From: Candidatus Electronema aureum
GTDB taxonomy: Bacteria; Desulfobacterota; Desulfobulbia; Desulfobulbales; Desulfobulbaceae
DNA: 32,000 nt
Direction: 5' to 3'
NCBI GenBank assembly: GCA_004284765.1
Contig: NQJD01000009.1
Location: 30,001 to 62,000 of the forward strand
The position numbers and the translations under genes were made by a program. This document shows, piece after piece, positions 2 to 23,028 of this stretch. Every line of letters begins with the position of its first letter. Within the stretch, counting starts at the first letter, position 1. The notes below the pieces were generated by a model, which was given only the letters and a program-made list of their open reading frames with translations, ran no database searches and had not been told where the DNA came from.

Positions 2-469
2 CAGCGTGATTCGCTGGCCCAGCAGATGACTACGCAGAATCTGACTTTGCTTCAGCAGGGGTCAGCAGCGGCCAGCCAGATCAGAACGAAAGTGCGGGAC
101 ACCATCATGACGGACCGCTACAAAAACATTTCTGCAATGGCTCCGAATCTGTACAGAAGCAATATTCAGCCTCAGATGGTACAGACCATCATCAGCAACA
201 TCAAACCTTGGGAGCTGCCTAATCGCTTCAAGAGCAAGATGATGCCGATGATCGTTGGTCAGGTGAGCAACCAGATTAAAATGCCGCAGATCAATTTCAT
301 GCAGGAGAACATCAATAGTGCTGAGTTCCCCAATGTGCCTGGTTTGCCGAGTGGTATGGCTGGTTCTGTACCCAACCAAATCAAAGAGCAGCAGATGCAG
401 CAAATGCAGCAGGGCGTGATGGATCCGAATTTCATCAATCCTCAGGACCTGATGAACGGCGGTATGTAA
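2..469 (+). CDS. Met/Gln/Asn-rich protein, 5' end truncated by the window edge; paralog of the central core of the next gene
   Basis: The reading frame is open from nt 2 with no upstream stop. The product aligns by eye with the core of the 653..1633 product (NQNL[TS]LL.Q, QIR..VRD.IMT.R, IQP..VQ.IIS.I.PW..P.RF.S.MMP, FMQ..I.S..FPNV). A terminator hairpin follows. Confidence 0.75.
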   Translation, partial: QRDSLAQQMTTQNLTLLQQGSAAASQIRTKVRDTIMTDRYKNISAMAPNLYRSNIQPQMVQTIISNIKPWELPNRFKSKMMPMIVGQVSNQIKMPQINFMQENINSAEFPNVPGLPSGMAGSVPNQIKEQQMQQMQQGVMDPNFINPQDLMNGGM

Positions 470-496
470 GCTGAAACGCAGTCTTTGTTAAGCTTG

Positions 497-534
497 AAGC
501 CGGAGACGCGAGGAGTGTCTTCGGCTTTTATTTT
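497..534 (+). terminator. Rho-independent terminator
   Basis: An 11-bp stem AAGCCGGAGAC (497-507) pairs with GTCTTCGGCTT (517-527), including one G-U pair. The loop is 9 nt and a T-rich run follows (526-534). Confidence 0.75.
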
Positions 535-557
535 GATAGCGGAGCAGTTGAAAAAAT

Positions 558-586
558 TTTACAAACTTGGCAAAAATTGCTATTTT
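558..586 (+). promoter_or_regulatory. Candidate sigma70-type promoter for the Met-rich gene
   Basis: TTTACA (558-563), a 17-nt spacer, then TATTTT (581-586), about 65 nt upstream of the ATG at 653. Confidence 0.35.
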
Positions 587-652
587 AAAGAGTAGTCGTA
601 TTTTATGGGAAGAGGAGCTGGTGGAATTATGAAAAAACGAGGAGAGAAAGGG

Positions 653-1633
653 ATGAAGAAGACAATCAAAGTTGCGTTGGGTCTGTCCGTTATCTGTTTG
701 GTAGCAGCAGGTTCAGCTTGGGCTGGCGGCAGTAATCCGGGCGATATGGGTATGGGCAATGTAGGCGTAAACCCCATGATGGGCGGCATGAACCCGATGA
801 GCAGTGGCTTCAACATGCCCGTTAATCCCAATTCGTTGGCTGGCACCTATGCAGGAGCGGGCGTTCAGTCAGGCTACGGCGGTGGAATGCCGGGCGGCAT
901 TGGAATGGGTGGAACCATGCCGGGCAACAGTGGAATGCAGCAGCAGGGTGGGATGCCTATGCTCGACCTGCGGCAAGTGGTTATGCAGGGCATTCAGACA
1001 CTACCGCAGCAGCAGCAGTACAACGGGGCAATCGGCATGGCCAATCAGAATCTGTCCCTGCTGAATCAAAGCATGGGGAACGGCATGTCTCCGGTCAATC
1101 AGATTCGGTACAGCGTGCGGGATCAAATCATGACCAATCGCGTCAACGATATCTCCCGGATGGGCCAAGCCACTTTCAGGCCGATGATTCAGCCCGGTGC
1201 CGTACAGAGCATGATCAGCCAAATTCAGCCGTGGAATTTCCCCTACCGCTTCCAAAGTGCCATGATGCCTGCCATGATTCCTATGGTTAGTTCGCCAATC
1301 AAGCAGCAGCAGATGGCTTTCATGCAGAACGGCATCATGAGTCAAGGTTTTCCCAATGTTCAGCTGCCGATGCCTGCTTTTGGGCCTCAAGGCATGTACA
1401 ATAACATGATGCCAAATAATCAAGGGATGATGAATGGCGGCATGATGCAGCAGGGCGGAATGATGAACAACGGTGGATATTACCCATCAATGAATGGTGG
1501 CATGATGATGGGTAATGGTATGATGCCGGGTAACCAAGGCATGTATAACAATGGAATGCCTGGTGGAATGGGAATGGGTGGTATGATGGGTGGCAGCATG
1601 ATGCCGGGCGGTCAGGGCATGTACGGCTACTGA
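653..1633 (+). CDS. Secreted Met/Gly/Asn/Gln-rich low-complexity protein with a conserved central core of unknown function
   Basis: ATG 653 is preceded by GGAGAG (641-646). The N-terminus MKKTIKVALGLSVICLVAAGSAWA/GG looks like a Sec signal peptide. The mature part has no Cys or His, and I count about 53 Met in about 320 residues. The C-terminal tail reads GGMMMGNGMMPGNQGMYNNGMPGGMGMGGMMGGSMMPGGQGMYGY. The longest ORF (605) adds 16 residues with no support. Confidence 0.8.
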   Translation: MKKTIKVALGLSVICLVAAGSAWAGGSNPGDMGMGNVGVNPMMGGMNPMSSGFNMPVNPNSLAGTYAGAGVQSGYGGGMPGGIGMGGTMPGNSGMQQQGGMPMLDLRQVVMQGIQTLPQQQQYNGAIGMANQNLSLLNQSMGNGMSPVNQIRYSVRDQIMTNRVNDISRMGQATFRPMIQPGAVQSMISQIQPWNFPYRFQSAMMPAMIPMVSSPIKQQQMAFMQNGIMSQGFPNVQLPMPAFGPQGMYNNMMPNNQGMMNGGMMQQGGMMNNGGYYPSMNGGMMMGNGMMPGNQGMYNNGMPGGMGMGGMMGGSMMPGGQGMYGY

Positions 1634-1659
1634 TCAAGAGCAAATTGATCGACTCCACC

Positions 1660-1698
1660 AAGCCGGGGATGCGAGAGCGTCTCCGGCTTCGTTATTTT
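1660..1698 (+). terminator. Rho-independent terminator, a sequence relative of the one at 497..534
   Basis: The stem AAGCCGGGGA (1660-1669) pairs with TCTCCGGCTT (1680-1689), followed by CGTTATTTT. The stem and loop sequences resemble the upstream terminator. Confidence 0.7.
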
Positions 1699-1738: not shown

Positions 1739-1811
1739 GGCCTTTTTTGCATGAAAAATAGGTTTATCCACAACGGCGGTTGTGCCGCAGAAAAAGAGGG
1801 GAAAAAGAAAG

Positions 1812-2717
1812 GTGGAGCATAAAAACGCCATTGTTTTGGCTATGTTTGGCACCACCATTGAGTCTGCTCTCAAAGGACTGCTCAATATCCGCGACAAAAT
1901 GAAGGCGCATTACCGAGAAACGCCAGTACGGATCGCTTTTACCTCCAATATAATCCGCAAAAAATGGCGAAAGCGGGCTACTGACCGAGAGTACATCAAA
2001 GCGCATCCTGAAATTCCTGCGGAAGTGCTGCACGTCAAAACGGTTTTAGCAACAATTGCCGATTTGCAGGATCAAGGCTATGACACTATCGTCCTTCAGC
2101 CGACCTATATTGCTATGGGCGAGGAATTTTTTGATCTTAGCACCTACGTTGATGGCTTACTACGGATGGGAATAGTCAAAAAAGAAAAATATAAACCTTT
2201 TCACAAAGTAGTGCTGGGCCGTCCTGCGCTTGGTAGCTACAGTACCGCCCATTCTTATGCCGAGGACATCATGGCAGCGGCTAAGGCTTTGGCCGCTGAT
2301 GCCGAGCTGGCGAAAGCAGAAAAAGCCGCGTTGGTTTATATGGGTCATGGCAATCAACATTTCCCCTCCGCAGGTTCTTATTTGGAACTTGCCTACCGGA
2401 TGCGCCAACTGTATCCAGATGTGCTGACGTTGATCGGCAATATTGAGGGCTTTCCTCATCTTACCGATGTGATGGACGAGCTGAAGCGTTTTGAAGTAAA
2501 AAAAGTGCTGCTCAAACCTTGCATGATCGTAGCCGGAGGACACGCAGTGAATGATATGATCGGGACAAAGGATACATCGTGGAAGAACATTCTGGAGAAC
2601 AACGGCTTTTCGGTAATGATTGTCGAGAGCGGTCTGGGCGAGCTTGATGCCTTTGCCGAGTTATTTGTTCGCAATGCGGGCCAAGCTGCCGCTGATGCGG
2701 GCATCTTTTTGAAATAA
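1812..2717 (+). CDS. cbiK: Sirohydrochlorin cobaltochelatase, anaerobic CbiK type
   Basis: Motifs NAIVLAMFGTT, YMGHGNQH and LKPCMIVAGGHAVNDM match the CbiK class II chelatase signature (Salmonella CbiK has FMGHG and LMLVAGDHAxNDM). The start is ambiguous: GTG 1812 has GAGGGG 10 nt upstream, while the longest ORF begins at GTG 1782. There is no signal peptide in either case, and an in-frame stop lies at 1752-1754. Confidence 0.85.
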   Translation: MEHKNAIVLAMFGTTIESALKGLLNIRDKMKAHYRETPVRIAFTSNIIRKKWRKRATDREYIKAHPEIPAEVLHVKTVLATIADLQDQGYDTIVLQPTYIAMGEEFFDLSTYVDGLLRMGIVKKEKYKPFHKVVLGRPALGSYSTAHSYAEDIMAAAKALAADAELAKAEKAALVYMGHGNQHFPSAGSYLELAYRMRQLYPDVLTLIGNIEGFPHLTDVMDELKRFEVKKVLLKPCMIVAGGHAVNDMIGTKDTSWKNILENNGFSVMIVESGLGELDAFAELFVRNAGQAAADAGIFLK

Positions 2718-2719
2718 CA

Positions 2720-3766
2720 ATGGTCACTCGACCGAACGGATTTCCTTACGTGGCAGGTGGCACTTTGCTGCTTATTTTGTTTATAACCATGCTTTTTTCC
2801 GCAGGCATGGGATTTATGCACATTTCTGCCTCGGCGGTGCTGCAAACTGTCGTTGCACATTTTTTCCCGACTGCTGGGGCAGAGCTTGATCCGGTCACGG
2901 TGTCGGTCATCATTGACGTTCGCCTACCGCGTATCTTTGCGGCTGTACTGGTGGGCGGAATGCTGGCGGTCTGCGGCACGGTTTTTCAGGCCATCTTGCT
3001 CAATCCGCTCGCTGATCCTTACACTTTGGGGGTTTCCTCCGGCGCAGCCTTCGGGGCTTCGTTGGTGATTGTCCTCCAAGTTGCCGGGCTGTCCTTCTTA
3101 CCCAAGGTCTTTACCGTGCCGATTTTTGCCTTTGCAGGCAGCATTGCGGCTTTATTAGCTGTATTGGCCTTGGCTGCTGGCGACCGGCGACTTTCTTCCT
3201 CCAGCTTGATTCTCTCTGGGGTCATTGTGGCTGCTATTCTCTCCGCTGCCATCGGTTTTCTCCAATTTCTTGCTGAAGAACAGGTTGGTATCATCATTTT
3301 TTGGCTGATGGGTTCTTTAGCCAGCACCTCCCGACAAGACATCCTCTTGCTCATTCCGGCTGCTTTGATTGGTTCAGCGGTCTGCCTCTTTTGTGGTCGC
3401 GATCTCAACATCATGGCCGCAGGCGAACGCGCTGCTGCCGCCTTGGGTGTGAATACCGTGCGCCTGCGCTGGACGCTCCTCATAACTTGCTCACTGATGA
3501 CTGCCCTTTGTGTGGCTGTTTCCGGTATTATCGGCTTTGTCGGCTTAGTGGTGCCACATCTGCTTCGTCACGTGGCTGGGCCTGATAACCGGCGGTTGAT
3601 TGTACTTTCCTTTCTCGGTGGCGGCTTGCTCCTGCTGTGTGCTGACACCCTGACGAGGGCGGTACTGCCTGCGGAAATACCTATCGGGGTGCTGACCTCG
3701 CTCCTTGGCGGTCCTTTTTTTGCCTGTATTTTTAAAAAACGGCAGCAGGATAATGGTCGCTTCTGA
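2720..3766 (+). CDS. FecCD/BtuC-family ABC transporter permease (iron-chelate, cobalamin or haem type)
   Basis: The motif LRLPRIFAAVLVGGMLAVCGTVFQAILLNPLADPYTLGVSSGAAFG is typical of FecCD permeases, and there are multiple hydrophobic segments. The gene starts 2 nt after the cbiK stop. Confidence 0.9.
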   Translation: MVTRPNGFPYVAGGTLLLILFITMLFSAGMGFMHISASAVLQTVVAHFFPTAGAELDPVTVSVIIDVRLPRIFAAVLVGGMLAVCGTVFQAILLNPLADPYTLGVSSGAAFGASLVIVLQVAGLSFLPKVFTVPIFAFAGSIAALLAVLALAAGDRRLSSSSLILSGVIVAAILSAAIGFLQFLAEEQVGIIIFWLMGSLASTSRQDILLLIPAALIGSAVCLFCGRDLNIMAAGERAAAALGVNTVRLRWTLLITCSLMTALCVAVSGIIGFVGLVVPHLLRHVAGPDNRRLIVLSFLGGGLLLLCADTLTRAVLPAEIPIGVLTSLLGGPFFACIFKKRQQDNGRF

Positions 3767-4544
3767 TCTTCTCTGGCAGCTTGAACAAGTCAATTTCGCC
3801 CACGGCAGCCGCAAGGTGCTGGACGCGGTCAGCCTGAATATCCACGCCGGTCGATGGTGCGGCATTCTTGGCCCTAATGGTAGCGGCAAAACTACTCTGC
3901 TTGATCTGCTCTGTGGCCTGTTGCCCCCAGCCAGTGGTACGGTTGTTTATCGTGATCTGCCGCTGAAGCAATGGAGTCGCCGCCAGCTCGCCCGCCGAAT
4001 TGCGCTGGTGCCACAGGATTTTGCCGTCCGTTTTGATTTCTCCGTGCGGGAAGTAGTGGAGATGGGCCGTCATCCCCATCTTGGCAGGTTAGCCTCGATG
4101 ACCGAGCGTGATTATGCCGTGGTCGATGCGGTGACGGGGGAAATGGGCGTGGCCGAGCTGGCCAACCGCCCGGTGACACAGCTCTCTGGCGGTGAAAAAC
4201 AGCGGGTCGCGGCTGCCCGTGCCTTAGCTCAGGAGCCGGAAGCCTTGCTTTTGGATGAAGCTACCTCAAATTTGGATATTTACCACTCGTTAGCCATCCT
4301 CAGTCTGCTCCGCCGCCGAGTGCGCGAGCAAGGTCTGACTGTGGTTTCTTCTCTGCATGACCTCAATTTGGCCGGTTTTTTCTGCGACGAGCTGATTTTT
4401 CTCAAAGAGGGTCAGCTGATTTGCCACGGAGAAACTAACGTCGTGCTGCGGCCAGAGGTCATCCGTGAGGTCTATGGTGTGGCAGCGCAAGTGCGGCAGG
4501 ATGACTTTACTGGCTGCTTGCAGGTAAGTTGCATCACATGTTGA
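3753..4544 (+). CDS. ABC transporter ATP-binding protein (FepC/BtuD/HmuV-like)
   Basis: Walker A GPNGSGKTT, signature LSGGEKQR and Walker B LLLDEATSNLD are present. ATG 3753 is preceded by AGGA and overlaps the permease stop by 14 nt. The longest ORF (3705) is an unsupported extension. Confidence 0.9.
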   Translation: MVASDLLWQLEQVNFAHGSRKVLDAVSLNIHAGRWCGILGPNGSGKTTLLDLLCGLLPPASGTVVYRDLPLKQWSRRQLARRIALVPQDFAVRFDFSVREVVEMGRHPHLGRLASMTERDYAVVDAVTGEMGVAELANRPVTQLSGGEKQRVAAARALAQEPEALLLDEATSNLDIYHSLAILSLLRRRVREQGLTVVSSLHDLNLAGFFCDELIFLKEGQLICHGETNVVLRPEVIREVYGVAAQVRQDDFTGCLQVSCITC

Positions 4545-4696: not shown

Positions 4697-5869
4697 ATGA
4701 AGCAGCCGGAAGTCGCCTACTGGGTCGCGTCTATGTTGGGTACGAAGAAAGGCGTGTCCGATTTGAACATCACTGTCGGCAAAGGCCTACAGGTCGAAAT
4801 CGACGGCGGACTCACGCCGGTCAAGGTCGAGCCACCGGTGGAGGTGCTTACCCCCTTTCAGACCGAGGTTTTCGCCCTCAACCTGATCCACGGCAACCCC
4901 CGACTGCTTAAAGATTTAGTAAGCAAAGGCTCCTGCGACCTTTCCTATACCTTAGAGAATTCTGCCCGCTTCCGCGTCAACGTCTTCACGCAAAAAAGTT
5001 GTTATTCCTCAGTGCTGCGGAAGTTAGAAACTAAGATTCCATCGATCAAGGACTTTGGTTTTCCTGACTGCTTTTATAAGATGGCCAAAGAGCGCAACGG
5101 TCTGATTCTTTTTACCGGCGGCACCGGTACAGGCAAGACCACCTCGCTGGCCTCTATTCTCAACGAAATCAACGAAACGAGGGCCGTTCATCTCGTCACC
5201 CTTGAAGACCCGATAGAATACGTTCATCCGCACAAGAAGGCCACCTTTAATCAACGCGAGCAGGGCGATGACTTTGACACCTTTGCCAACGGACTGCGGG
5301 CCGCACTCCGCCAAGCACCTAAGGTCATTTTTGTTGGCGAGATTCGCGACCGTGAAACCTTAGAAATTGCTCTCACCGCTGCCGAAACCGGCCACGTGGT
5401 TTTTTCTTCCATGCACACCATCGATGCGGGACAGACGATCAACCGGGTCATCGGCATGTTTGAACACGATGAGCAGGCCCAGATCAGGGTGCGGCTGTCC
5501 GACACCATCCGTTGGGTAGTGAGCCAGCGTCTCTTGCCCAAAGTCGGCGGAGGCCGGGCGGCAGCGTTAGAAATCCTTCACATCAGTCTGCGCGTCAAAG
5601 ACCTGATCCTCAACGGCGAAGATGTGGCAACAGACAAGACGTTCTACAGTGTTCTTGAGGAAGGCTCGACCTTAGACATGCGCACCTTTGATCAACACAT
5701 CTTGCAGCTTTTCGGGCAAGGTCTGATCACTGAGGAAGTTGCCATGACCTACTGCTCCAACCGCAGCGTGATCAAACGAGGCATGGACACCATCAGGTCA
5801 ACCCGTGGAGAAAGCACCTCCAACATCATGGGCTTGGCAATGGAGCAGGTGGAAGAGGAAAAGAAATAA
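4697..5869 (+). CDS. pilT: PilT/PilU-family type IV pilus retraction ATPase
   Basis: Walker A GGTGTGKTT plus VTLEDPIEY, FVGEIRD and FSSMHT (His box). The 390-aa length is typical of the PilT/PilU branch of secretion ATPases. Confidence 0.85.
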   Translation: MKQPEVAYWVASMLGTKKGVSDLNITVGKGLQVEIDGGLTPVKVEPPVEVLTPFQTEVFALNLIHGNPRLLKDLVSKGSCDLSYTLENSARFRVNVFTQKSCYSSVLRKLETKIPSIKDFGFPDCFYKMAKERNGLILFTGGTGTGKTTSLASILNEINETRAVHLVTLEDPIEYVHPHKKATFNQREQGDDFDTFANGLRAALRQAPKVIFVGEIRDRETLEIALTAAETGHVVFSSMHTIDAGQTINRVIGMFEHDEQAQIRVRLSDTIRWVVSQRLLPKVGGGRAAALEILHISLRVKDLILNGEDVATDKTFYSVLEEGSTLDMRTFDQHILQLFGQGLITEEVAMTYCSNRSVIKRGMDTIRSTRGESTSNIMGLAMEQVEEEKK

Positions 5870-5912: not shown

Positions 5913-6662
5913 ATGATCAGCAATTGCCCTCACTGTCAGGGTGCGCTTACCTTCAATGCAGCCCAGATGGCAAAAATCGAGCAGGCTCTGAAGGCTCTCA
6001 AGCCCGGCCAGAAGCTGCCGCTCAAATGCCCGCACTGCACCAAGCCCATGCCTCTTGATGCTTCCGGCCAAGTGGAAGGCGCACCCAAAGTCGCTGCCAC
6101 TACTCCGGCAGCTCCGCCCAAAGTAGAGCCGCCTAGTCCAGCCGAGCAGATCAAGCCGCCGCCACCGCCTAACATGGACTGGCTGAAAAGCAAAGAAAAA
6201 GAAGAAATGCAGTTCGACGACCATGCTAGGGATGTGCCAATGGCCTTGGTACTTCATGGCGACGACAACATGCGGCATTTGATCACATCCTCGATGGAGG
6301 CACTTGGCTATCAGGCTTCGGCAGTCACAACAGCGGAGGAGGCCATTCACGAAACCCAATCGATGAGTTATGCCTGCATTGTCTATCACACCGGCTTTGA
6401 GCCAGGCGAGCTAAAGGATTCCACCTTTCATAATTACATGCGACAAATGCCCATGTCGCGACGACGTTACACTTTTTATATCCTTATTGGGCCTGAATTT
6501 ACCAGCCTTTACGATATCCAAGCGTTGGCCAACAGTGCTAACTTGGTGGTAGCGGAAAAGGACATGAAAAACTTCCAACCCATCCTGCACAGGGCTATTC
6601 CGTACTACGAGCAGCTCTTTGGCCCGCTCCTCGAAGAACTGGCTTCTTACGGAAAAAAATAA
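5913..6662 (+). CDS. Zinc-ribbon (MJ0042-like CxxC...CxxC) protein with a Pro-rich linker and a receiver-like C-terminal domain
   Basis: N-terminal CPHCQG..(27 aa)..CPHCTK, then the linker PAAPPKVEPPSPAEQIKPPPPP. The C-terminal alternating beta/alpha pattern (ALVLHGDD, ACIVYH, FYILIG, ANLVVAEKD) resembles a CheY-like fold without the canonical phospho-acceptor Asp. Confidence 0.6.
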   Translation: MISNCPHCQGALTFNAAQMAKIEQALKALKPGQKLPLKCPHCTKPMPLDASGQVEGAPKVAATTPAAPPKVEPPSPAEQIKPPPPPNMDWLKSKEKEEMQFDDHARDVPMALVLHGDDNMRHLITSSMEALGYQASAVTTAEEAIHETQSMSYACIVYHTGFEPGELKDSTFHNYMRQMPMSRRRYTFYILIGPEFTSLYDIQALANSANLVVAEKDMKNFQPILHRAIPYYEQLFGPLLEELASYGKK

Positions 6663-9949: not shown

Positions 9950-12601
9950 ATGGCTTCACAGAACGACCAGCGTGCCACCGATTTCGAGGAAGTCAAACGA
10001 ATCCTTGAACAACAACCGCGCATTACCTTAATGCAGACGGAAGGCGAGCCGCCTGATTGCTACGAAATTGAATACCGACTGGCTGGAATGGTGCGGGATG
10101 CTGACGGGACTATCCGTAAGGCTTCTCAGCATGTGGTTCTCATCACTCTGCCCTTTGGCTATCCTCATTTTCCGCCCACTGTTAAGCCGCTGACTCCACT
10201 TTTTCATCCTGATATTGATCCAGATGCAGTACGCATTTCTTCACACTGGCAACAAAGTCCTTCTTTAGCCAAGCTCATTGTTCAAGTCGGCGAGATGATT
10301 TGTGGTAAAAACTACAATCTCGAAGACCCCTTTAATCAGGAAGCAGCAGACTGGTATGCCCAACACGCTACCGAATTGCCACTTGACAGCTTAGAAGTGG
10401 CGAGCGATGAATCAATTGACGAATTTGATCTGGGACTTGATGATCTTGATTTGGGGCCGACAGGAGGAACCACTGAGGAGCAGTCCTTCGAGCTATCTTT
10501 GGAGTTAGAGTCACCGCAGGCTGTTCATGATGTTTTGGCCGATGCTTCTGCTGATCATCAAGAAGGCGGAACAGGAGGGCTATCGCTGGAACTGGAATCT
10601 TCATCGACAACACTTGAGGAAGATTTTGATCTTGGCGTAGAGGATGGGCAAGAGGATGATCTGTCCTTAGATATCGGTGAACCAGAAAAACCGCCGCAGG
10701 TTGTTCAACAGGATTTTGGGCCAAAGCTGAAGGAAATTCGCTCGCATATTGATCGAAAGGAAATATTTATCGCCGCGCGGCTGCTGAAAGAAGTTCCTGC
10801 GCTCCCGGAAACGGAGATACTCAAGAAGAAGGTCAAGGCCGCGCAAGATAAGTGCGATGAATTACTCCAGAACATGAAGGTGCTGGAGGATGAGGACAAT
10901 TTTGCGGCAGCGCAAGAGGTATTTACCCAGCTCAAGACCGTGGCGGTGGACACACCCGGTTTAGCTGAAATAGGCAGACGCTTGCAGCAGTCGCAGTCCA
11001 TGCTCGATACTTTTGCCCTAACCAAAGAAAAAACCGAGCCGGAAACCGAGCTGCCCGGCGCAGAAAAAAAGAAAAAAAAATCTGCCAAAGAAACACCACC
11101 TCCTCTGCCTAAACTAAAGGAAAAACCTGCCGAGCCGAAGGAAAAGAAAGAGGTTATTAAAACCAAATCGAGGATTATCCGAGCAGCGCAGCAGAATGTG
11201 CCGGTCGCGCCTTTTGCTGTTGCCGCTGCGGTAGCTGCGGTAATCATCGTAGGTGGGCTGGTTTACACCAGAGATAGCAACACTCTCTTAGAAGCGCAGC
11301 GCGATTGGCAGGAAGCCCAAGGTCTTGTCAAGCAAAAGAATTTTCCCCAAGCAGAGGCCAAAATCAACATCGCTTCTGCGGCACTGAAAACGGTACTCAC
11401 TCCTTTGCCGGAAAAAAGCCGAATCAAGACTGAAATTGCTGCATTATTTGCCAATGAGGACTTTCAGCGCGGATTGAAAAATGAGGCCAAGTATAAAGAT
11501 CAGTATCTACCGCTTCAAGAGGTCAAGGCGCGCGAGCAGTTAGACAAGATGACCACCCAAGCCGAGGCGTTAAAAGCAAACAGCGTCAGCGATGCCGCAG
11601 CTGCTTACGAAAAAGCCCAGTCTTTTGCCGCTGAAAGCGGATTAGTCGTCGAAGCGGAGCAGTTGAAAGAGCGCGTGCATCAATTGCGGATGAAAGAGGC
11701 GTTGGTCAATGCCGGACGGGCAGAAACTGCTGGAGAGTGGGAAAACGCGGCCAAAACTTATCAGCAGGCTTTAGAAATTGCCCAAACCTTGACAGATGAC
11801 AAGGAAAAAGAGGCCATCAGCAAGAGATTAGCCGCTGCTGCCTTCAACCGCGAATTAGATCAGTCCAAAAAAAGTTTCACCGGCTCGCAGTGGCAGCAGA
11901 CCATTGAAATGCTGGAACGGGCGAAAAAATTACTGGAGCAGAATCCAGAAACTGCTACGGTTGAACGGCGGCAGGAGTTAGAGCGACTTTTGGCCAAGTC
12001 TCGTTTGCATCAGGTGCTTTCGACAGCGCGGCAGGCTTATGACAGCGGTGATACCGCTACCGCAGTGAGAGGCTACCGGCAGTCACTGGCTTTGCTCACG
12101 AACCAGCTGTCATTGTTCGACGAAACAGACCGCAACGCTGCCCATTCAATCAGCAGAACCATCACCATGATTGAAATCGGCGGTGAGCTGAACGCAGCAG
12201 TGACAGCGGAAAACCAGAAGGAGTTGACCGATGCGCTTCGCCATTATCGGGCTATTCAAAATCTTTTCAACACGCCCGGATTAACTAAGGATTCCAGCCT
12301 GCTGACATTGGAGGAAAATGTCAATGCCAAAGTCAGCAGCCTGAGTAGCGAAGCAGGCATGAAGCGAAAGACTGCGTGGTTGAACCGAAATTTTAGACGC
12401 ATCTTTATGGAAGTTTATCCAAATTCACGTCCAACTGATCTCAGCAATCCAAATCTCAGCTTGGTCAAAAAAGTTGGCAATCAAGAAATCTACAAACTGA
12501 CCTGCACCGAGCGAAGCAGAGGCAGCGCGTATCAACTTGAACTTATTTATCTCTACGACCCAGTTGCCGATCAGTGGATAGCCTACCGGGGCGTGCTGTG
12601 A
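9950..12601 (+). CDS. Single-pass membrane protein: N-terminal E2/UEV-like (UBC-fold, no catalytic Cys) domain, acidic repeat region, coiled coil, Lys-rich segment, TM helix, and a long helical (TPR-like) C-terminal region
   Basis: HVVLITLPFGYPHFPPTVKPLTPLFHPDIDPDAVRISSHWQQSPSLAKLIVQVGEMICGKNYNLEDPFNQEAADWY aligns by eye with the E2 core ([41 protein letters not shown].L......L..I..LL..PNPDDPL..EAA..Y). The TM helix is PFAVAAAVAAVIIVGGLVY (about nt 11198..11268). Confidence 0.8.
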   Translation: MASQNDQRATDFEEVKRILEQQPRITLMQTEGEPPDCYEIEYRLAGMVRDADGTIRKASQHVVLITLPFGYPHFPPTVKPLTPLFHPDIDPDAVRISSHWQQSPSLAKLIVQVGEMICGKNYNLEDPFNQEAADWYAQHATELPLDSLEVASDESIDEFDLGLDDLDLGPTGGTTEEQSFELSLELESPQAVHDVLADASADHQEGGTGGLSLELESSSTTLEEDFDLGVEDGQEDDLSLDIGEPEKPPQVVQQDFGPKLKEIRSHIDRKEIFIAARLLKEVPALPETEILKKKVKAAQDKCDELLQNMKVLEDEDNFAAAQEVFTQLKTVAVDTPGLAEIGRRLQQSQSMLDTFALTKEKTEPETELPGAEKKKKKSAKETPPPLPKLKEKPAEPKEKKEVIKTKSRIIRAAQQNVPVAPFAVAAAVAAVIIVGGLVYTRDSNTLLEAQRDWQEAQGLVKQKNFPQAEAKINIASAALKTVLTPLPEKSRIKTEIAALFANEDFQRGLKNEAKYKDQYLPLQEVKAREQLDKMTTQAEALKANSVSDAAAAYEKAQSFAAESGLVVEAEQLKERVHQLRMKEALVNAGRAETAGEWENAAKTYQQALEIAQTLTDDKEKEAISKRLAAAAFNRELDQSKKSFTGSQWQQTIEMLERAKKLLEQNPETATVERRQELERLLAKSRLHQVLSTARQAYDSGDTATAVRGYRQSLALLTNQLSLFDETDRNAAHSISRTITMIEIGGELNAAVTAENQKELTDALRHYRAIQNLFNTPGLTKDSSLLTLEENVNAKVSSLSSEAGMKRKTAWLNRNFRRIFMEVYPNSRPTDLSNPNLSLVKKVGNQEIYKLTCTERSRGSAYQLELIYLYDPVADQWIAYRGVL

Positions 12602-15089: not shown

Positions 15090-16385
15090 CTATGGCGTAT
15101 TTGTGCATAACGGTATCTCCTTCAAAAGGAGATTGTGATTTTCTTCTACCTTGTAATCATAGTTAATTTTAAAAAAATCTATTTCTTTTTCTCTTTTTTC
15201 ATACGAAGAAAGGATGTTGTAAATATTATTGGCGGTCGTGGAGTAGTTATGGCCGCTATATTCCATAGAGATTCTTTTGTAAATATTTTTTACCTTTTCA
15301 AATAGATGCCTTTTATCACTATCTTTCTCGTAACATTGAAGTAGATACATATTTAACCCAGCTATGCTGATCTGGGCTTCAGGGATAAAAGAACTTTTTG
15401 GAAACTTTTTTATAAAAGATTCGTAACGACCTATTTGTTCATCAACAGACTCTATGCTGCACTCATATTCGTATGGAATATGTAGATAAACATCAGCAAG
15501 AGCTTTCTGATCATCGCTTGCGTTTTTATTGTTAATAACTTTACGGTAAGGCTTTGCTACTTCTTCCATCTGTGCACACTCACCAGTACACTCTTGGTCA
15601 ACTTTATCAACGGAAGTGGAATTGATCGCTGATGTCGCTGACTGCGTCTTCTCGATTTTTTGTTTTTGATTTGCTGCGTCAGCAGTTACAACTTTGTTTT
15701 CTTTGGTTACAGAAATAGGATTATTCTCCTTTTTAGGAATATAAGCATCCTGTTGAGTTGCAATTTGATTATCCTTCTTAACCTCAGCAGGATAGAACTT
15801 GTAATAGAAGAAAACAAAGGTTGCGACAATGACAAAAGATGTAATTACAATTTTATTTTTGCTGATAAAAATTTTATTGTCTTTATCGGTTTTATTTTCT
15901 ATACGCTCAAAGTTTATATTTGCTTTAAAGTCAGATTCAGTTTTTTCTAAATTTTTTACTTTTTTAATTGAATCGCATTGAGTAATTCCTATCGCTTTGA
16001 TTAAACGCTGATATCCATTCGCTTCATATAAATTCATCCAGTGCCAGCGACTAAGACGAGCTGGAACCTCGCAATCTTCAAGGCGGACAGGAATAATAAA
16101 TATTTTTCCTTCCGGTTGTTCTTCAGCAGCATCAAGTGCAAAACAGATTTCTTTCTGAACGTATCCGCGTTTGTTGACTGAATTTCTGGAAAGACAAACA
16201 ATCACTATAGCGGAAGAGCGAACAGCTTTACGAATTTCATACTGCCAGTCTTGCCCAGGCAAGAGGTCTTCTTCATCGAGCCAAGGATAATAACCATCCT
16301 TTTTTAACCGATGATATAGTTCCCTGACTTTTGCTTTGTCAGCCGAAGAATGGCAGAGAAATATGCGAGAAGAAGGTGATGTCAT
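15090..16385 (-). CDS. TIR-domain membrane protein (N-terminal TIR_2-like domain, one TM helix, Cys-containing helical C-terminal domain)
   Basis: RIFLCHSSADKAKVRELYHRLKKDGYYPWLDEEDLLPGQDWQYEIRKAVRSSAIVIVCLSRNSVNKRGYVQKEICFAL fits the bacterial TIR pattern (hhhSasS.D, W.D, L.PG..W, hhhhhS..S..S.WV..E). The TM helix is IVITSFVIVATFVFFYYKF. The gene is strongly AT-rich relative to its neighbours. ATG 16385 is preferred over TTG 16391. Confidence 0.85.
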   Translation of the reverse strand: MTSPSSRIFLCHSSADKAKVRELYHRLKKDGYYPWLDEEDLLPGQDWQYEIRKAVRSSAIVIVCLSRNSVNKRGYVQKEICFALDAAEEQPEGKIFIIPVRLEDCEVPARLSRWHWMNLYEANGYQRLIKAIGITQCDSIKKVKNLEKTESDFKANINFERIENKTDKDNKIFISKNKIVITSFVIVATFVFFYYKFYPAEVKKDNQIATQQDAYIPKKENNPISVTKENKVVTADAANQKQKIEKTQSATSAINSTSVDKVDQECTGECAQMEEVAKPYRKVINNKNASDDQKALADVYLHIPYEYECSIESVDEQIGRYESFIKKFPKSSFIPEAQISIAGLNMYLLQCYEKDSDKRHLFEKVKNIYKRISMEYSGHNYSTTANNIYNILSSYEKREKEIDFFKINYDYKVEENHNLLLKEIPLCTNTP

Positions 16386-16404
16386 AGCCAATGCAATAAG
16401 TTAT

Positions 16405-17163
16405 TCAATTCAATGTAGTATTGATATCCTCTGCCCTAATCGGACTCACATCCCCAGCCATCACCCGCTGTTCCCTACCGCAGCGGTCAATTATAACATA
16501 TCGCCCGTCCTCGGCAAGTCCTGCGCCGACCGCTGGGATCACTTTGTCCTGACTGCAATATTCCAGCGGCCTGTTGAGCAAATAATCTCGCTGCCGCCAT
16601 TCGGCCAGCAAGTCGGCCTTGTCCTCCTTGAGTCGCTCTGTCGCCGCAAGCAGATCCTCAACTAAACCCGGCAGCAGGGCGGCAGGATTGGCCGCTGCCG
16701 CGCCAGTCTCGGCCAAAGCGATGATCCTGCCGCGCAGCTCCGGCGGAAAGCCCTGCGACAAGGCGGCAACGTTGATACCCACCCCGACCACCACAAATTC
16801 CGGCAGCCCAGCCCGCAGCGGCCCGCTTTCGGTGAGAATGCCGCCGAGCTTTTTGTCGGCAAAATACAGATCATTGGGCCATTTGAGCAGCGGCTGCACA
16901 CTGACCGCAGCCATAAGGCCACGGCACAGCCCGACCCCGGCGGCCAAAGTCAACAGCGGGAAATCGACAAGCTCCAGCTCCGGGCGCAGAATCACGGAAA
17001 AATACAAACCGCCGGGCGGCGAGCAAAACTGCCGCCCGTTCTGCCCGCGTCCGCCGGTCTGTTGATCAGCGTGAACCACCGTACCCTGCGCCGCACCCTG
17101 CCGGGCTAAATCAAGGGCTATGCTGCTGGTCGAATCAACAACCGCAAAATGATGCAGTTGCAT
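16405..17163 (-). CDS. birA: Biotin--[acetyl-CoA-carboxylase] ligase, without an N-terminal HTH (group I)
   Basis: Motifs QTGGRGQNGRQFCSPPGGLYFSVIL and KWPNDLYFADKKLGGILTE. The start overlaps the dnaN stop by 1 nt (TGATG). Confidence 0.9.
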   Translation of the reverse strand: MQLHHFAVVDSTSSIALDLARQGAAQGTVVHADQQTGGRGQNGRQFCSPPGGLYFSVILRPELELVDFPLLTLAAGVGLCRGLMAAVSVQPLLKWPNDLYFADKKLGGILTESGPLRAGLPEFVVVGVGINVAALSQGFPPELRGRIIALAETGAAAANPAALLPGLVEDLLAATERLKEDKADLLAEWRQRDYLLNRPLEYCSQDKVIPAVGAGLAEDGRYVIIDRCGREQRVMAGDVSPIRAEDINTTLN

Positions 17164-18311
17164 CAGGCGATGGACGGCGGGCTGCTCAATTTCATCGGCA
17201 TGACGATGCCGAGAAAACCTTTGTCATCCGCCGAGCTGATCAGGCAAGGGCTTTCGTCTGAGCTGACTGCGGCAGAAATGGCATCGCCTTCCAGCACCGA
17301 AAGTGCCTCAATGAAATAGCGACAATTGAAACCCATGCAGAGATCATGACCGCTGTAAGTGATTTCAATCTCATCTCTTGCTGAACCAAAATCCGCATTT
17401 TCTGAAGTCAGAATAAGCCTATTGCCTTGCGCTTCAAAGCGGATGGCATGAAAAATATCCTCGGTGAAAAGATTAATCCGCTTCAGCGATTCAAGAAACA
17501 TGATCTTGTTAATGATCATGCTATTGTCACTCGACAGCGAGCGGAGGATATTCTCAAAATCGGGAAAATCTCCTTCCATCAGACGGATGACCAAAACCGA
17601 GTTCTCGCTTTGCAGCACTAATTTCTTCTGATCAACTCCTATTCGGCAGTTATCTAATTCTTCGCAGAACTTGCGCATTTGCTGCACACCCCGGCGAGGA
17701 ATCAGGACTGATTGACCAAAATCCAGTCCGGCCAAACCCGCTGCTTCTCGGTTCATAATGCTCAGGCGGTGGCCGTCGGACGTAACCATCCGCAGCACGG
17801 TCTTGCCTTCCTCCTCGCGCTTTTGCAGCAGGGCAGCAGTGAGGTTGTACATGTTCTCGCGGTCAGCAGCGATGGAGAACAAGGTTTTGTCGATCAGGTC
17901 GCAGAGCGCGTCGCTTTCCACATCGACCAAAGCCTGCTCGTCGTATTGGTCAAACTGGGGGAACTCCTCGCTCACCATGCCAGCTAACCGATAGGTGCTG
18001 CTGCCCGCACTGATGCGAATCCAATTCTTCTCCTCTTCTTTGAAATTGATCGTCTCTGAGCCAGATTCGCGAACCAACTCAAAGAGCTTTTTTGAAGGAA
18101 TGGTCAGGGTTCCGCCTTCAAAAACCTCGGCAGGTACGATCTGACGCAGACTGACCTCCAAGTCGGTACCAGTGAAAATCACCTCGTTGTTCCGCACTTC
18201 CAGCAGCACGTTGGAGAGAATCGCCAGTGTGCCCTTCTTGTTCGTGATGTTTTGCTGGGCACTGATCGCGTCCAAGAGGTCTTTCTTGGCGATGTTAAAA
18301 TGGAACGGCAT
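17163..18311 (-). CDS. dnaN: DNA polymerase III beta sliding clamp
   Basis: The N-terminus is FNIAKKDLLDAISAQQNITNKKGTLAILSNVLLEV, the length is 382 aa and the C-terminus is GIVMPMKL. GGAG lies 9 nt upstream of the ATG. Confidence 0.95.
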   Translation of the reverse strand: MPFHFNIAKKDLLDAISAQQNITNKKGTLAILSNVLLEVRNNEVIFTGTDLEVSLRQIVPAEVFEGGTLTIPSKKLFELVRESGSETINFKEEEKNWIRISAGSSTYRLAGMVSEEFPQFDQYDEQALVDVESDALCDLIDKTLFSIAADRENMYNLTAALLQKREEEGKTVLRMVTSDGHRLSIMNREAAGLAGLDFGQSVLIPRRGVQQMRKFCEELDNCRIGVDQKKLVLQSENSVLVIRLMEGDFPDFENILRSLSSDNSMIINKIMFLESLKRINLFTEDIFHAIRFEAQGNRLILTSENADFGSARDEIEITYSGHDLCMGFNCRYFIEALSVLEGDAISAAVSSDESPCLISSADDKGFLGIVMPMKLSSPPSIA

Positions 18312-21423: not shown

Positions 21424-22242
21424 TTAATTGCCCCCGAAGAATTTGCTGAAGATACTCTTCTTTTTCGGGTCGATGAAACGCATCTCAATGTCTTCACCGA
21501 GAAAGCGGGCCACGCAGTCCTGATAGGCCATCCCTGCGTCGCTATTCCGGTTGGCAATCACTGGTACACCTTGGTTAGAGGCAGTCAGCACTGCTTCAGA
21601 CTCCGGGATGACTCCCAGCAGCGGAATAGACAGAATTTCCTGAATATCTTTAACCGAGAGCATTTCTCCACGGCTGACCCGCTCCGGCGAATAACGGGTG
21701 AGCAGCAGATGCTCTTTGACCGGGGTGCGGTTTTCCACCACCCGTTTAGTTTTGCTCGCTAAGAGGCCGAGAATGCGGTCAGAATCGCGCACTGAGGAGA
21801 TTTCTGGATTCGTGACCACGACAGCTTCATCGGCAAAATACATCGCCATAAACGCACCGTGTTCAATACCAGCTGGGGAATCACAGACGATGTAATCAAA
21901 GGTTTCCTTCAGCTCGTTGAGGACAGTCTCTACGCCTTCCATCGTCAGCGATTCCTTGTCCTTGGTCTGTGAAGCAGGCAGAATGTAGAGATTTTCCGTG
22001 CGCTTGTCGCGGATCAGGGCTTGATTCAGCCGAGCTTCTTTATTGATCACGTTGACAAAATCATAGACCACCCGCCGCTCACAACCCATGATCAAGTCTA
22101 AATTTCGTAGGCCGACATCGAAATCAACTACAGCGGTCTTGTGGCCTTCTAAGGCCAGTCCCATAGCGAACGCCGCACTGGTGGTGGTTTTACCCACGCC
22201 GCCCTTGCCAGAAGTGATGACGATTATTTTCGTATTGGTCAA
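21424..22242 (-). CDS. minD: Septum site-determining ATPase MinD
   Basis: VITSGKGGVGKTTTSAAFAMGLA (deviant Walker A) and DFDVGLRNLDLIMG. The C-terminal amphipathic tail is KKSIFSKFFGG. Confidence 0.95.
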   Translation of the reverse strand: MTNTKIIVITSGKGGVGKTTTSAAFAMGLALEGHKTAVVDFDVGLRNLDLIMGCERRVVYDFVNVINKEARLNQALIRDKRTENLYILPASQTKDKESLTMEGVETVLNELKETFDYIVCDSPAGIEHGAFMAMYFADEAVVVTNPEISSVRDSDRILGLLASKTKRVVENRTPVKEHLLLTRYSPERVSRGEMLSVKDIQEILSIPLLGVIPESEAVLTASNQGVPVIANRNSDAGMAYQDCVARFLGEDIEMRFIDPKKKSIFSKFFGGN

Positions 22243-22272
22243 GTTTTATCCTCCAGAAAACAGATTGATTCG

Positions 22273-23028
22273 CTATAAGGCGGTGATGTGCAGCCTGCCG
22301 CCGTGCAGGCGGATGTGTACGGCCTTGGAACGCAAATGGGCCGGAAAATCCTCGCTGACTAAATGAATGCCCGCGATGGAGACGAGTTCTGCCTCTAATC
22401 GCTGACAAAAGATGCGGGCCTTGGGACTACCATTGCAACCGGCAAAAGCACGACCCCGCAAGGTACCATAGACGTGAATGTTGCCCGGAGCGGTAATTTC
22501 CGCACCAGAACCCACTGAAGCCATCACGGTCAAATCGCCTTGCTCGACCGTAACACTCTGGCCTGAGCGTACCGGTTCGGTGAGGATAAGCGAGGTGTCA
22601 GTTGCGGTGGTGGGCTTTTCCTGCGCTGCTGGCAGCGGGATCAGAACAGGCTCTTCCGCAAAAAATTCTTCCGTTTCCTCGTCTTGCGCTCGTCCACTTG
22701 CCCGCGTAGTCAGCACGGCTAATTCCATCGCCGCCGCTTGGTGTTTCTGCTGCTCAGTGCAGCCGGTGATCCCAACTGGAATGAAGCCCTGCGCCCGCAC
22801 GATGCTGACCAACATAGCCAAGTCGATATGCTCTTCTTCGTCCAAATGTTGAAGATTGATCACCACCGGGGCGTTATGAAAGAAATCTGCTGCCTGCCGG
22901 ACTTTTTCGGCCAGCTGCACTGCTGCTGCATCCAGATCATTTTTCCGCAGCGACAAGACCAGAATGGTGAAGGACGTTCCTTTGAGATCAAAGGCGGCCT
23001 TATTGTCATGTTTAGCAGAATTGGGCAT
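22273..23028 (-). CDS. minC: Septum site-determining protein MinC
   Basis: The C-terminal beta-helix motifs are SGQSV...GDLTVMASVGSGAEITAPGNIHVYGTLRGRAFAG. The gene sits upstream of minD. Confidence 0.9.
   Translation of the reverse strand: MPNSAKHDNKAAFDLKGTSFTILVLSLRKNDLDAAAVQLAEKVRQAADFFHNAPVVINLQHLDEEEHIDLAMLVSIVRAQGFIPVGITGCTEQQKHQAAAMELAVLTTRASGRAQDEETEEFFAEEPVLIPLPAAQEKPTTATDTSLILTEPVRSGQSVTVEQGDLTVMASVGSGAEITAPGNIHVYGTLRGRAFAGCNGSPKARIFCQRLEAELVSIAGIHLVSEDFPAHLRSKAVHIRLHGGRLHITAL

Follow-up and report, generated by a model that had tools for sequence, protein, structure and literature searches.

Proteins of the ZraP/CpxP/Spy type (LTXXQ, PF07813/PF13801) are among the closest described counterparts of the extremely methionine-rich proteins encoded by two adjacent genes in a 32,000-nucleotide stretch of Candidatus Electronema aureum DNA (contig NQJD01000009.1, positions 30,001 to 62,000), which was analysed as a whole and is called the window below. 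These two genes are paralogues 4 and 5 of a five-gene array. Ca. Electronema is a freshwater genus of cable bacteria, i.e. filamentous Desulfobulbaceae that conduct electrons over centimetres via periplasmic fibres. The likeness to ZraP, CpxP and Spy lies in Sec export, small size and a predicted all-helical structure, and ZraP moreover ends in a Gly/Met-rich tail. Nevertheless, CpxP, Spy and ZraP carry two conserved LTXXQ motifs in a helical hairpin, whereas a single LTLLQ is present in paralogue 4 and LSLLN in paralogue 5, and no match to PF07813 or PF13801 was found in the window proteins at E <= 10. The Electronema proteins also differ in that they contain no His, have far longer tails (76 and 90 amino acids) and are encoded in a five-paralogue array, and their family has been seen only in cable bacteria.

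The copper and silver binders SilE/PcoE, CopC/PcoC, CusF and the 'Mets' segments of Ctr1 are likewise extracytoplasmic, partly disordered and full of MxM and MxxM motifs. SilE and PcoE use His-Met pairs. The cable-bacterial proteins have no such pairs and show no homology to SilE/PcoE, CopC or CusF in the Pfam, NCBIfam and PDB sequence searches; in addition, the Met positions of their tails are not conserved and they are not linked to copper or silver resistance genes. Another group of comparable composition comprises the FUS-type domains with their G/S-Y-G/S pattern and the GGM tail of GroEL, which are uncharged and rich in Gly, Gln, Asn and Tyr, and in which composition is kept while sequence and length drift. 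In contrast to the FUS-type domains, the main sticker of the cable-bacterial segments would be Met rather than Tyr or Phe, the setting is a bacterial periplasm, and the segments flank a conserved helical core. The curli subunit CsgA is secreted, Gln/Asn/Gly-rich and self-assembling, a property that we propose for the cable-bacterial proteins as well, but it consists of five imperfect beta-strand repeats and has the dedicated partners csgEFG/csgB, whereas the cable-bacterial core is predicted to be helical and is free of such repeats. No csg-like accessory genes were found near the array in the window or in the related loci. Finally, the GY-rich shematrins and the Met-rich nacre protein MRNP34 are framework proteins of the mollusc-shell matrix with a similar composition (PMC4660305), i.e. 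they are secreted and contain uncharged Gly-rich repeats with Tyr or Met, and they are associated with an inorganic phase, as we propose here for an inorganic or organometallic one. The resemblance is compositional only, as these proteins are eukaryotic, unrelated in sequence and without a helical core.

The complete gene of the window, paralogue 5, lies at 653..1633 on the plus strand and encodes 326 amino acids, namely a core and two low-complexity flanks. It is preceded on the same strand by the 3' part of paralogue 4 at 2..469 (155 codons plus stop), so that the two tandem open reading frames (ORFs) described in an earlier sequence-only reading are both present. The edge of the window removes about 98 N-terminal residues of paralogue 4, including its signal peptide; the part that is left comprises the core between QRDSLAQQM and FPNV, with a Q/M-rich tail behind it that repeats IKxxQMxxMQ. 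The full-length orthologue, found on a contig of isolate F5 (L002, 8761-9519), has 253 amino acids, a GTG start and the signal peptide MKKVAIRFTAGIGLALAVTAGSAWA. Paralogue 5 has a Sec-type signal peptide of 24 residues (653..724, plus strand), in which all three elements of a type I signal, n, h and AxA, can be seen by inspection (MKKTIKVALGLSVICLVAAGSAWA followed by GG, with the predicted cleavage between AWA and GG). This was also the view of the sequence-only reading, and a Sec-type N-terminus is, again by inspection, kept in all orthologues and all paralogues.

The mature paralogue 5 contains 53 Met in 302 residues (17.5%), together with 61 Gly, 33 Gln and 31 Asn; there is no Cys, His or Glu, and the charged residues amount to 7 Arg, 1 Lys and 4 Asp. 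In other words, the Met count and the near absence of charge that had been noted from the sequence were correct, and only the length of the mature chain had been overestimated at about 320 residues. For comparison, the Met content of the other 23 genes of the window is 2.4 +/- 1.2% with a maximum of 5.2%, and to our knowledge that of paralogue 5 is among the most extreme in any bacterial protein. The Met residues form 11 MM, 4 MxM, 6 MxxM and 11 MxxxM patterns, and sulfur makes up 5.3% of the mature protein by mass as against 1.1% of CbiK, which is encoded downstream. Trypsin is calculated to leave an 83-mer and a 109-mer besides a small number of peptides loaded with Met, which means that this protein could easily go unnoticed in shotgun work.

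The central core (953..1360, plus strand; residues 101-236) runs from MPMLDLRQVV through IQPGAVQSMISQIQPWNFPYRFQSAMMP to FMQNGIMSQGFPNV, includes the conserved peptide IQPGAVQSMISQIQPWNFPYRF, and is predicted with low confidence to form five helices. That the two window proteins share such a core is borne out by BLASTP (47% identity over 116 amino acids, E = 5e-29), although its length is about 136 residues rather than the 110 or so first proposed. The N-terminal flank (725..952, plus strand; residues 25-100) is an uncharged Gly/Met/Asn/Pro low-complexity segment with a conserved motif, SGFNMPVNPNSLAGTYA, at 803..853. The C-terminal tail (1361..1633, plus strand) consists of 90 residues of Gly/Met/Asn/Tyr low complexity (30% Gly, 28% Met; no Lys, Arg, Asp, Glu, His or Cys) that end in YGY, plus the stop codon, and the G/M/N/Q/P/Y run quoted earlier from the sequence is indeed the true C-terminus of this ORF.

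The core and the flanks have evolved in very different ways. The ratio of non-synonymous to synonymous substitution rates (dN/dS) was calculated from eight orthologues of paralogue 5, in which dS is saturated. It is 0.08-0.17 for the core and 0.13-0.55 for the flanks, which also contain many indels. The low values of the core indicate that paralogue 5 is a real gene under strong constraint, and the contrast between a strongly constrained core and drifting flanks marks the core as the conserved functional module. Across the orthologues the tails contain 17-53% Gly, 9-35% Met and 2-16% Tyr, and neither their sequence nor their length is conserved. They are essentially free of Lys, Arg, Glu, His and Cys, the sole carrier of Arg being the locus L009 (2%). 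Met and Tyr replace each other, i.e. we find (GGYGGGM)n in L006, (MGMGSMSGGMGMMPSSS)n in L009, and GGMM/GNGMM runs in the window. Within the flanks only two short elements are conserved, SGFNMPVNPxSLAxxYA in the N-terminal flank and the C-terminal YGY, and conserved Met residues are found only in the core, for example in the MMP motif. In distant members of the family the flanks are unrelated: they consist of QNPYP repeats, a duplicated QPRLRNYTAPPAT stretch or G/S/R/D-rich segments. Judging from these alignments, the flanks are selected for their physical character and not for given ligand positions. The tails have the composition of sticker-and-spacer segments, being uncharged, rich in Gly, Gln and Asn, interspersed with Met and aromatic residues, and drifting in sequence.

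The core was not recognised as a named family in the sequence-only reading, and all comparisons made since agree with this. Pfam and NCBIfam scans of the two window proteins gave noise only (IL5, E = 0.27), and a Pfam scan of 76 family members gave scattered sub-threshold matches to DUF6395, Glyco_trans_4_5, Metal_resist and FHIPEP. When the family profile was compared with all PDB sequences, the best match was Dcp2 (E = 0.02), which we take as a chance hit, and no copper or silver protein was found; the comparison of this profile with ZraP and CpxP, described below, was negative as well. AlphaFold2 gave all-helical models in which the packing is not confident, both for the window core with 76 sequences (predicted local distance difference test, pLDDT, 47) and for a member from Ca. 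Electrothrix with 34 sequences (pLDDT 54), and Foldseek searches of the PDB with these two models returned nothing below E = 4. In the literature that we searched, no description of a Met-rich cable-bacterial protein and no fibre proteome or expression data were found. What appears to be new here is a protein family that is without detectable relatives in these searches, rather than a mechanism.

The two window genes were thought to represent a tandem duplication of a whole transcription unit. The duplication of units is correct, but the genes are not a simple pair, as they are the end of an array of five. jackhmmer detected five consecutive paralogues, on the same strand and in the same order, in L002 and in five other Electronema-type loci. 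Their lengths are approximately 110 (paralogue 1), 112 (paralogue 2), 155 (paralogue 3), 210-285 (paralogue 4) and 280-355 amino acids (paralogue 5). All five have signal peptides by inspection and contain 8-21% Met, and Cys or His occurs in almost none of the mature Electronema paralogues. The Gly/Met-rich flanks are present only in paralogue 5. Scanning one genome per species, we found a 100% identical core in Candidatus Electronema nielsenii F5, whose contig (L002) is 95.2% identical to the window at the DNA level over 2.6 kb, so that the window stems from a close relative of F5 rather than from that assembly, and core copies with 64-82% identity in six other Ca. Electronema genomes and in two metagenome-assembled genomes labelled Desulfobulbaceae.

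Each of the window genes has its own expression signals. The predicted promoter of paralogue 5 (558..586, plus strand) consists of a -35 box TTTACA, a 17-nt spacer and an extended -10 box TGCTATTTT; the A-rich stretch in front of it is possibly an UP element. Upstream of paralogue 5 the elements GAAAAAAATTTTACAAA ... TGCTAyyyT are kept in all nine genomes compared while the remaining spacer has diverged, and the promoters of paralogues 2 and 3 are similar (TTGACa ... ctgTGCTAyCnT). The Shine-Dalgarno sequence GAGGAGAG (639..646, plus strand), read directly from the sequence, is conserved in nine genomes. A sigma-54 promoter, TGGCA...TTGCT, was considered in front of paralogue 5 and rejected on inspection, as the spacing from GG to GC is 8 nt and not 10. 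Paralogue 4 ends in an intrinsic terminator with a 14-bp stem and a T run (496..528, plus strand), the stem being retained in most orthologous loci though the sequences differ, and the terminator hairpin of paralogue 5 (1660..1689, plus strand) is related to it in sequence. This relationship was already seen in the sequence-only reading; it can now be expressed as the motif AAGCCGGrGAyGCGA, which is common to both hairpins and occurs three times in the window against 0.24 expected occurrences. In L002 the terminators are strong for paralogues 1, 3, 4 and 5 and weak for paralogue 2. Because the promoters and the terminators of the paralogues are related, we conclude that whole promoter-gene-terminator units were duplicated; the duplications were more numerous than is visible in the window, and are older than the divergence of the genus. 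The combination of promoter, Shine-Dalgarno and terminator signals looks typical of abundant proteins.

The distribution of the family was determined by sequence searches. When 1.84 billion representatives were searched exhaustively by HMMER with a profile built from three sequences, 17 clusters were returned, 16 of which are genuine. The remaining cluster (P0017) was rejected as spurious, since it is a 1621-residue concatemer in which 32 residues were matched eleven times. A word-indexed search of 5.8 billion proteins with the core alone retrieved 2 proteins. A word-indexed search with the 17-sequence family alignment retrieved 76. The organism-named members among the 76 all belong to Ca. Electronema (VV, JC, PJ, halotolerans and 'Desulfobulbus sp. 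F4/F5', isolate F5 being labelled Ca. Electronema nielsenii in its genome record) or to Ca. Electrothrix (AR1, AR3, AR5, GW3-4 and communis). The divergent locus L014 can be assigned to a cable bacterium as well, since its glycogen phosphorylase is 90-91% identical to those of Ca. Electrothrix sp. Rat3 and AS4_5 and 73-76% identical to those of Desulfocapsa and Desulfobulbus. Judged on the organism-named members of both genera, the family appears to be confined to cable bacteria.

Two observations on outlying loci may be added. In L014 the family member is followed by two small secreted Met-rich ORFs (10825..11175 and 11436..11816; 116 and 126 amino acids) whose style is reminiscent of paralogues 1 and 2 (MQPMMKNKIMNTQM). 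The hidden Markov model of the family gave no match to them, and they may be very divergent family members. The member P0015 (L013, 10001..10657) carries the JGI (Joint Genome Institute) name 'flagellar biosynthesis component FlhA', which we regard as a misannotation because the underlying FHIPEP match is below threshold (E = 0.001, 18 bits against a cut-off of 29 bits).

We tentatively favour, with rather less than even confidence, the view that these lineage-restricted, Sec-exported proteins associate with themselves and have a structural or scaffold role in the specialised envelope of cable bacteria. Each gene would be expressed, probably at a high level, as a transcription unit of its own, with the promoter, ribosome-binding site and terminator that can be seen in the sequence. 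The product would be exported by the Sec system and cleaved by signal peptidase I, as the N-termini suggest. The core of about 136 residues, rich in Met, Gln and Ile, would then form amphipathic helices that have no stable fold alone but gain structure by packing on further copies, on other paralogues or on a hydrophobic, sulfur-rich partner; the low-confidence all-helical models and the strong purifying selection are consistent with such a step. In paralogue 5 the two uncharged flanks, in which Met and Tyr are scattered among many Gly residues, may serve as cohesive stickers and spacers through which the assembly gels or becomes cross-linked, which is what a conserved composition in a non-conserved sequence points to. 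Within the envelope, the proteins might belong to the fibre sheath or the cartwheel junction, or form a periplasmic filler. The sequence-only reading had offered self-association and a periplasmic soft-metal buffer as two hypotheses. We now lean towards the former, because the tails keep an uncharged Gly-rich composition while their Met content, sequence and length vary, and away from the latter.

Several facts weigh against a structural role. Self-association is a property that we infer from composition alone, and the literature searches yielded no expression, localisation or assembly data on these proteins. Moreover, the predicted helical core would be unlike classical bacterial fibres, which are beta-rich. 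The Gly/Met tails are limited to paralogue 5 of Electronema-type genomes, and since all cable bacteria build fibres, a universal structural role of the tails is unlikely. Likewise, the three Electrothrix loci examined carry only two short tandem members of 163-165 and 103-106 amino acids, which lack such tails and in which His and a single Cys occur. In E. halotolerans the array locus is made up of paralogues 4 and 5 alone. Finally, the metagenomic members L013, L017, P0008-P0010, P0012, P0014 and P0016 lie outside the named cable-bacterium set, so the restriction to cable bacteria is provisional.

The alternative that survives best, though we consider it unlikely, is the soft-metal buffer, in which the thioethers would bind Cu(I) or Ag(I) and shield periplasmic targets in the manner of the Met motifs of copper-resistance proteins and Ctr1. 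The sheer number of Met residues in the mature paralogue 5 and their MM, MxM, MxxM and MxxxM spacings are what such a buffer would need, and the predicted periplasmic location and the Met-richness of all five paralogues agree with it. However, the tails conserve neither the positions nor the proportion of Met, orthologues have Tyr, Gly or Gln instead, and other family members have flanks without any Met. The Electronema proteins also do without the His that SilE and PcoE combine with Met, and the search of PDB sequences brought up no copper or silver protein. Nickel, the third metal that had been suggested, is a poor candidate, as general coordination chemistry makes it unlikely that thioethers unaided by His or Cys would bind Ni(II). 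Nor is the distribution that of a general metal defence, which would not stay within one clade. At the level of regulation, no palindromic operator was found in the conserved paralogue 5 promoter in the alignment of orthologues from nine genomes. A wider connection between cable bacteria and metals is nonetheless suggested by the title of a paper by Van de Velde et al. (reference 46 of PMC13534509), which attributes to the electrogenic sulfur oxidation of these bacteria an effect on the cycling of trace metals in sediment.

The neighbouring genes bear on the same question. In Electronema the array sits between a beta-helix/PKD gene upstream and a CbiK-FecCD-ABC unit downstream. The former (L002, 3608..6427) encodes a secreted protein of 939 amino acids with right-handed beta-helix, NosD-type and PKD matches; it lies directly 5' of the array in seven Electronema-type loci with 68-78% identity, and E. 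halotolerans has no such gene at that position. The NosD-type match could speak for a role in metal handling, as could LarC and ZnuABC in L013 and the CbiK-FecCD-ABC genes in L014 and in the window (CbiK, FecCD permease and ABC ATPase, 1782..4544). On the other hand, there are no cop, cus, sil, pco or cue genes in the 32-kb window, and no resistance or efflux genes at the related loci. The CbiK-FecCD-ABC unit, which we considered as a clue to nickel or cobalt, was discarded as a partner of the array: it follows the array terminator, and a cobalamin riboswitch is located directly upstream of CbiK in four relatives (L006, 10747..10932; L009, 10632..10817; L019, 1141..1327; L014, 16150..16346; 131-136 bits), which identifies it as a separately controlled corrinoid module. 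Rfam detected no riboswitch in the window, where the gap 5' of CbiK is only 149 nt, i.e. the riboswitch is lost there. The CbiK link is seen again in L014, and CbiG is found near Electrothrix members, but the adjacency of the array and CbiK is best read as inherited synteny. We note that the window CbiK has no signal peptide and no adjacent substrate-binding protein, whereas the CbiK of L014 has a signal peptide and an adjacent Peripla_BP_2 protein.

We regard it as distinctly unlikely that the proteins are periplasmic holdases or carriers. In this reading, flexible Met-rich helices would present a pliable hydrophobic surface, comparable to the Met bristles in the M domain of SRP54 and to the cradle of Spy, CpxP and ZraP, on which envelope proteins in an unfolded state or a hydrophobic cofactor would be chaperoned, and the tails would correspond to the GGM tail of GroEL and the Gly/Met/His tail of ZraP. 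The order of signal peptide, helical core and Gly/Met tail is the same as in ZraP, the LTLLQ of paralogue 4 resembles the LTXXQ motif, and all-helical models of low confidence are what one would expect of flexible binders. This likeness had suggested a kinship with ZraP and CpxP, which was rejected on the strength of hhalign: the probabilities for ZraP and CpxP were 4.5% and 1.6%, respectively, and only the signal peptide or 8 residues were aligned. One Electrothrix member has a weak match to PF13801 (Metal_resist) with E = 0.014, but this is the best value among the 4 of 76 members that match this domain at all, and its 16 bits are below the cut-off of 29.2 bits. The LTXXQ-like stretch is not conserved either, as it reads LSLLN in paralogue 5 and varies among orthologues, and a five-paralogue array would be unusual for a general chaperone.

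It is highly improbable, in our view, that the proteins are sacrificial antioxidants, whose surface Met would scavenge reactive oxygen species where the filament reduces oxygen and would be regenerated by a periplasmic methionine sulfoxide reductase. Methionine is well established as an endogenous antioxidant, as reported by Levine et al. in 1996, and the extreme Met content and the predicted periplasmic location would suit this function. However, neither the window nor the related loci examined contain an msr gene, orthologues differ fourfold in how much Met their tails carry, and the conserved core and the five paralogues would be left unexplained. The weakest explanation, that the ORFs arose by chance in a repetitive or low-complexity region, has only their odd composition in its favour and is refuted as practically impossible by the pattern of conservation, i.e. 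a core dN/dS of about 0.1 over saturated dS, conserved promoter, Shine-Dalgarno and terminator signals, and orthologues in at least nine genomes and on dozens of metagenome contigs, so that the ORFs are real genes, as first assumed.

The rest of the window contains several genes of separate interest. The CbiK-FecCD-ABC unit is followed by a gene for a PilT-like ATPase of the T2SSE family (4697..5869, plus strand) and, after it, by one for a protein of 249 amino acids with two CPHC motifs, a Pro-rich linker and no Pfam match (5913..6662, plus strand). A protein of 883 amino acids (9950..12601, plus strand) has an N-terminal E2-like UQ_con domain (E = 2.5e-8), the rest of it giving no Pfam match and no PADLOC match. 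At 15090..16391 on the minus strand lies a gene for a TIR-domain protein of 433 amino acids, whose best PADLOC matches are Argonaute-associated TIR-PNTD models (E = 1e-20); there is no Argonaute gene beside it in the window. dnaN is present without an adjacent dnaA, and minD and minC are a few kb away (17163..18311 and 21424..23028, both on the minus strand). With dnaN, minD and minC in its surroundings, the array belongs to a housekeeping part of the chromosome that may be close to the origin, and a search for a plasmid provenance of the window gave no match.

To return to the favoured envelope role, a more specific version of it is that the family supplies the protein matrix, or an assembly scaffold, of the periplasmic conductive fibres, which we consider quite improbable as it stands. 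The amphipathic Met/Gln-rich helices would coat sulfur-rich nickel-dithiolene nanoribbons, and in Electronema the Gly/Met/Tyr tails of paralogue 5 would gel into an insulating sheath. Against this version, the tailed paralogue is missing in Electrothrix at the loci examined. On the other hand, a nickel-organic core of the conductive fibres has recently been described, while the protein components and assembly genes of these fibres have yet to be identified (PMC11774119; PMC13534509). The Ni-dithiolene nanoribbons are reported to lie in a 'surrounding protein', the sulfur-containing amino acids of which needed accounting for (PMC13534509). In composition, the shematrins and MRNP34 of the shell matrix provide a precedent for a matrix role of this kind (PMC4660305).

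If it were true, the matrix or scaffold role would account both for the sulfur in this 'surrounding protein' and for the escape of the fibre protein from tryptic proteomics. The family thus amounts to a short and concrete list of candidates for the missing protein fraction of the fibres: they are secreted, found so far only in cable bacteria and preceded by what look like strong expression signals, and one member contains more than 5% sulfur and would be nearly invisible to trypsin-based methods. Even without a role in conduction, the family would combine, in the periplasm, an extreme Met content, a conserved core without relatives and tails that evolve by conserving their composition.

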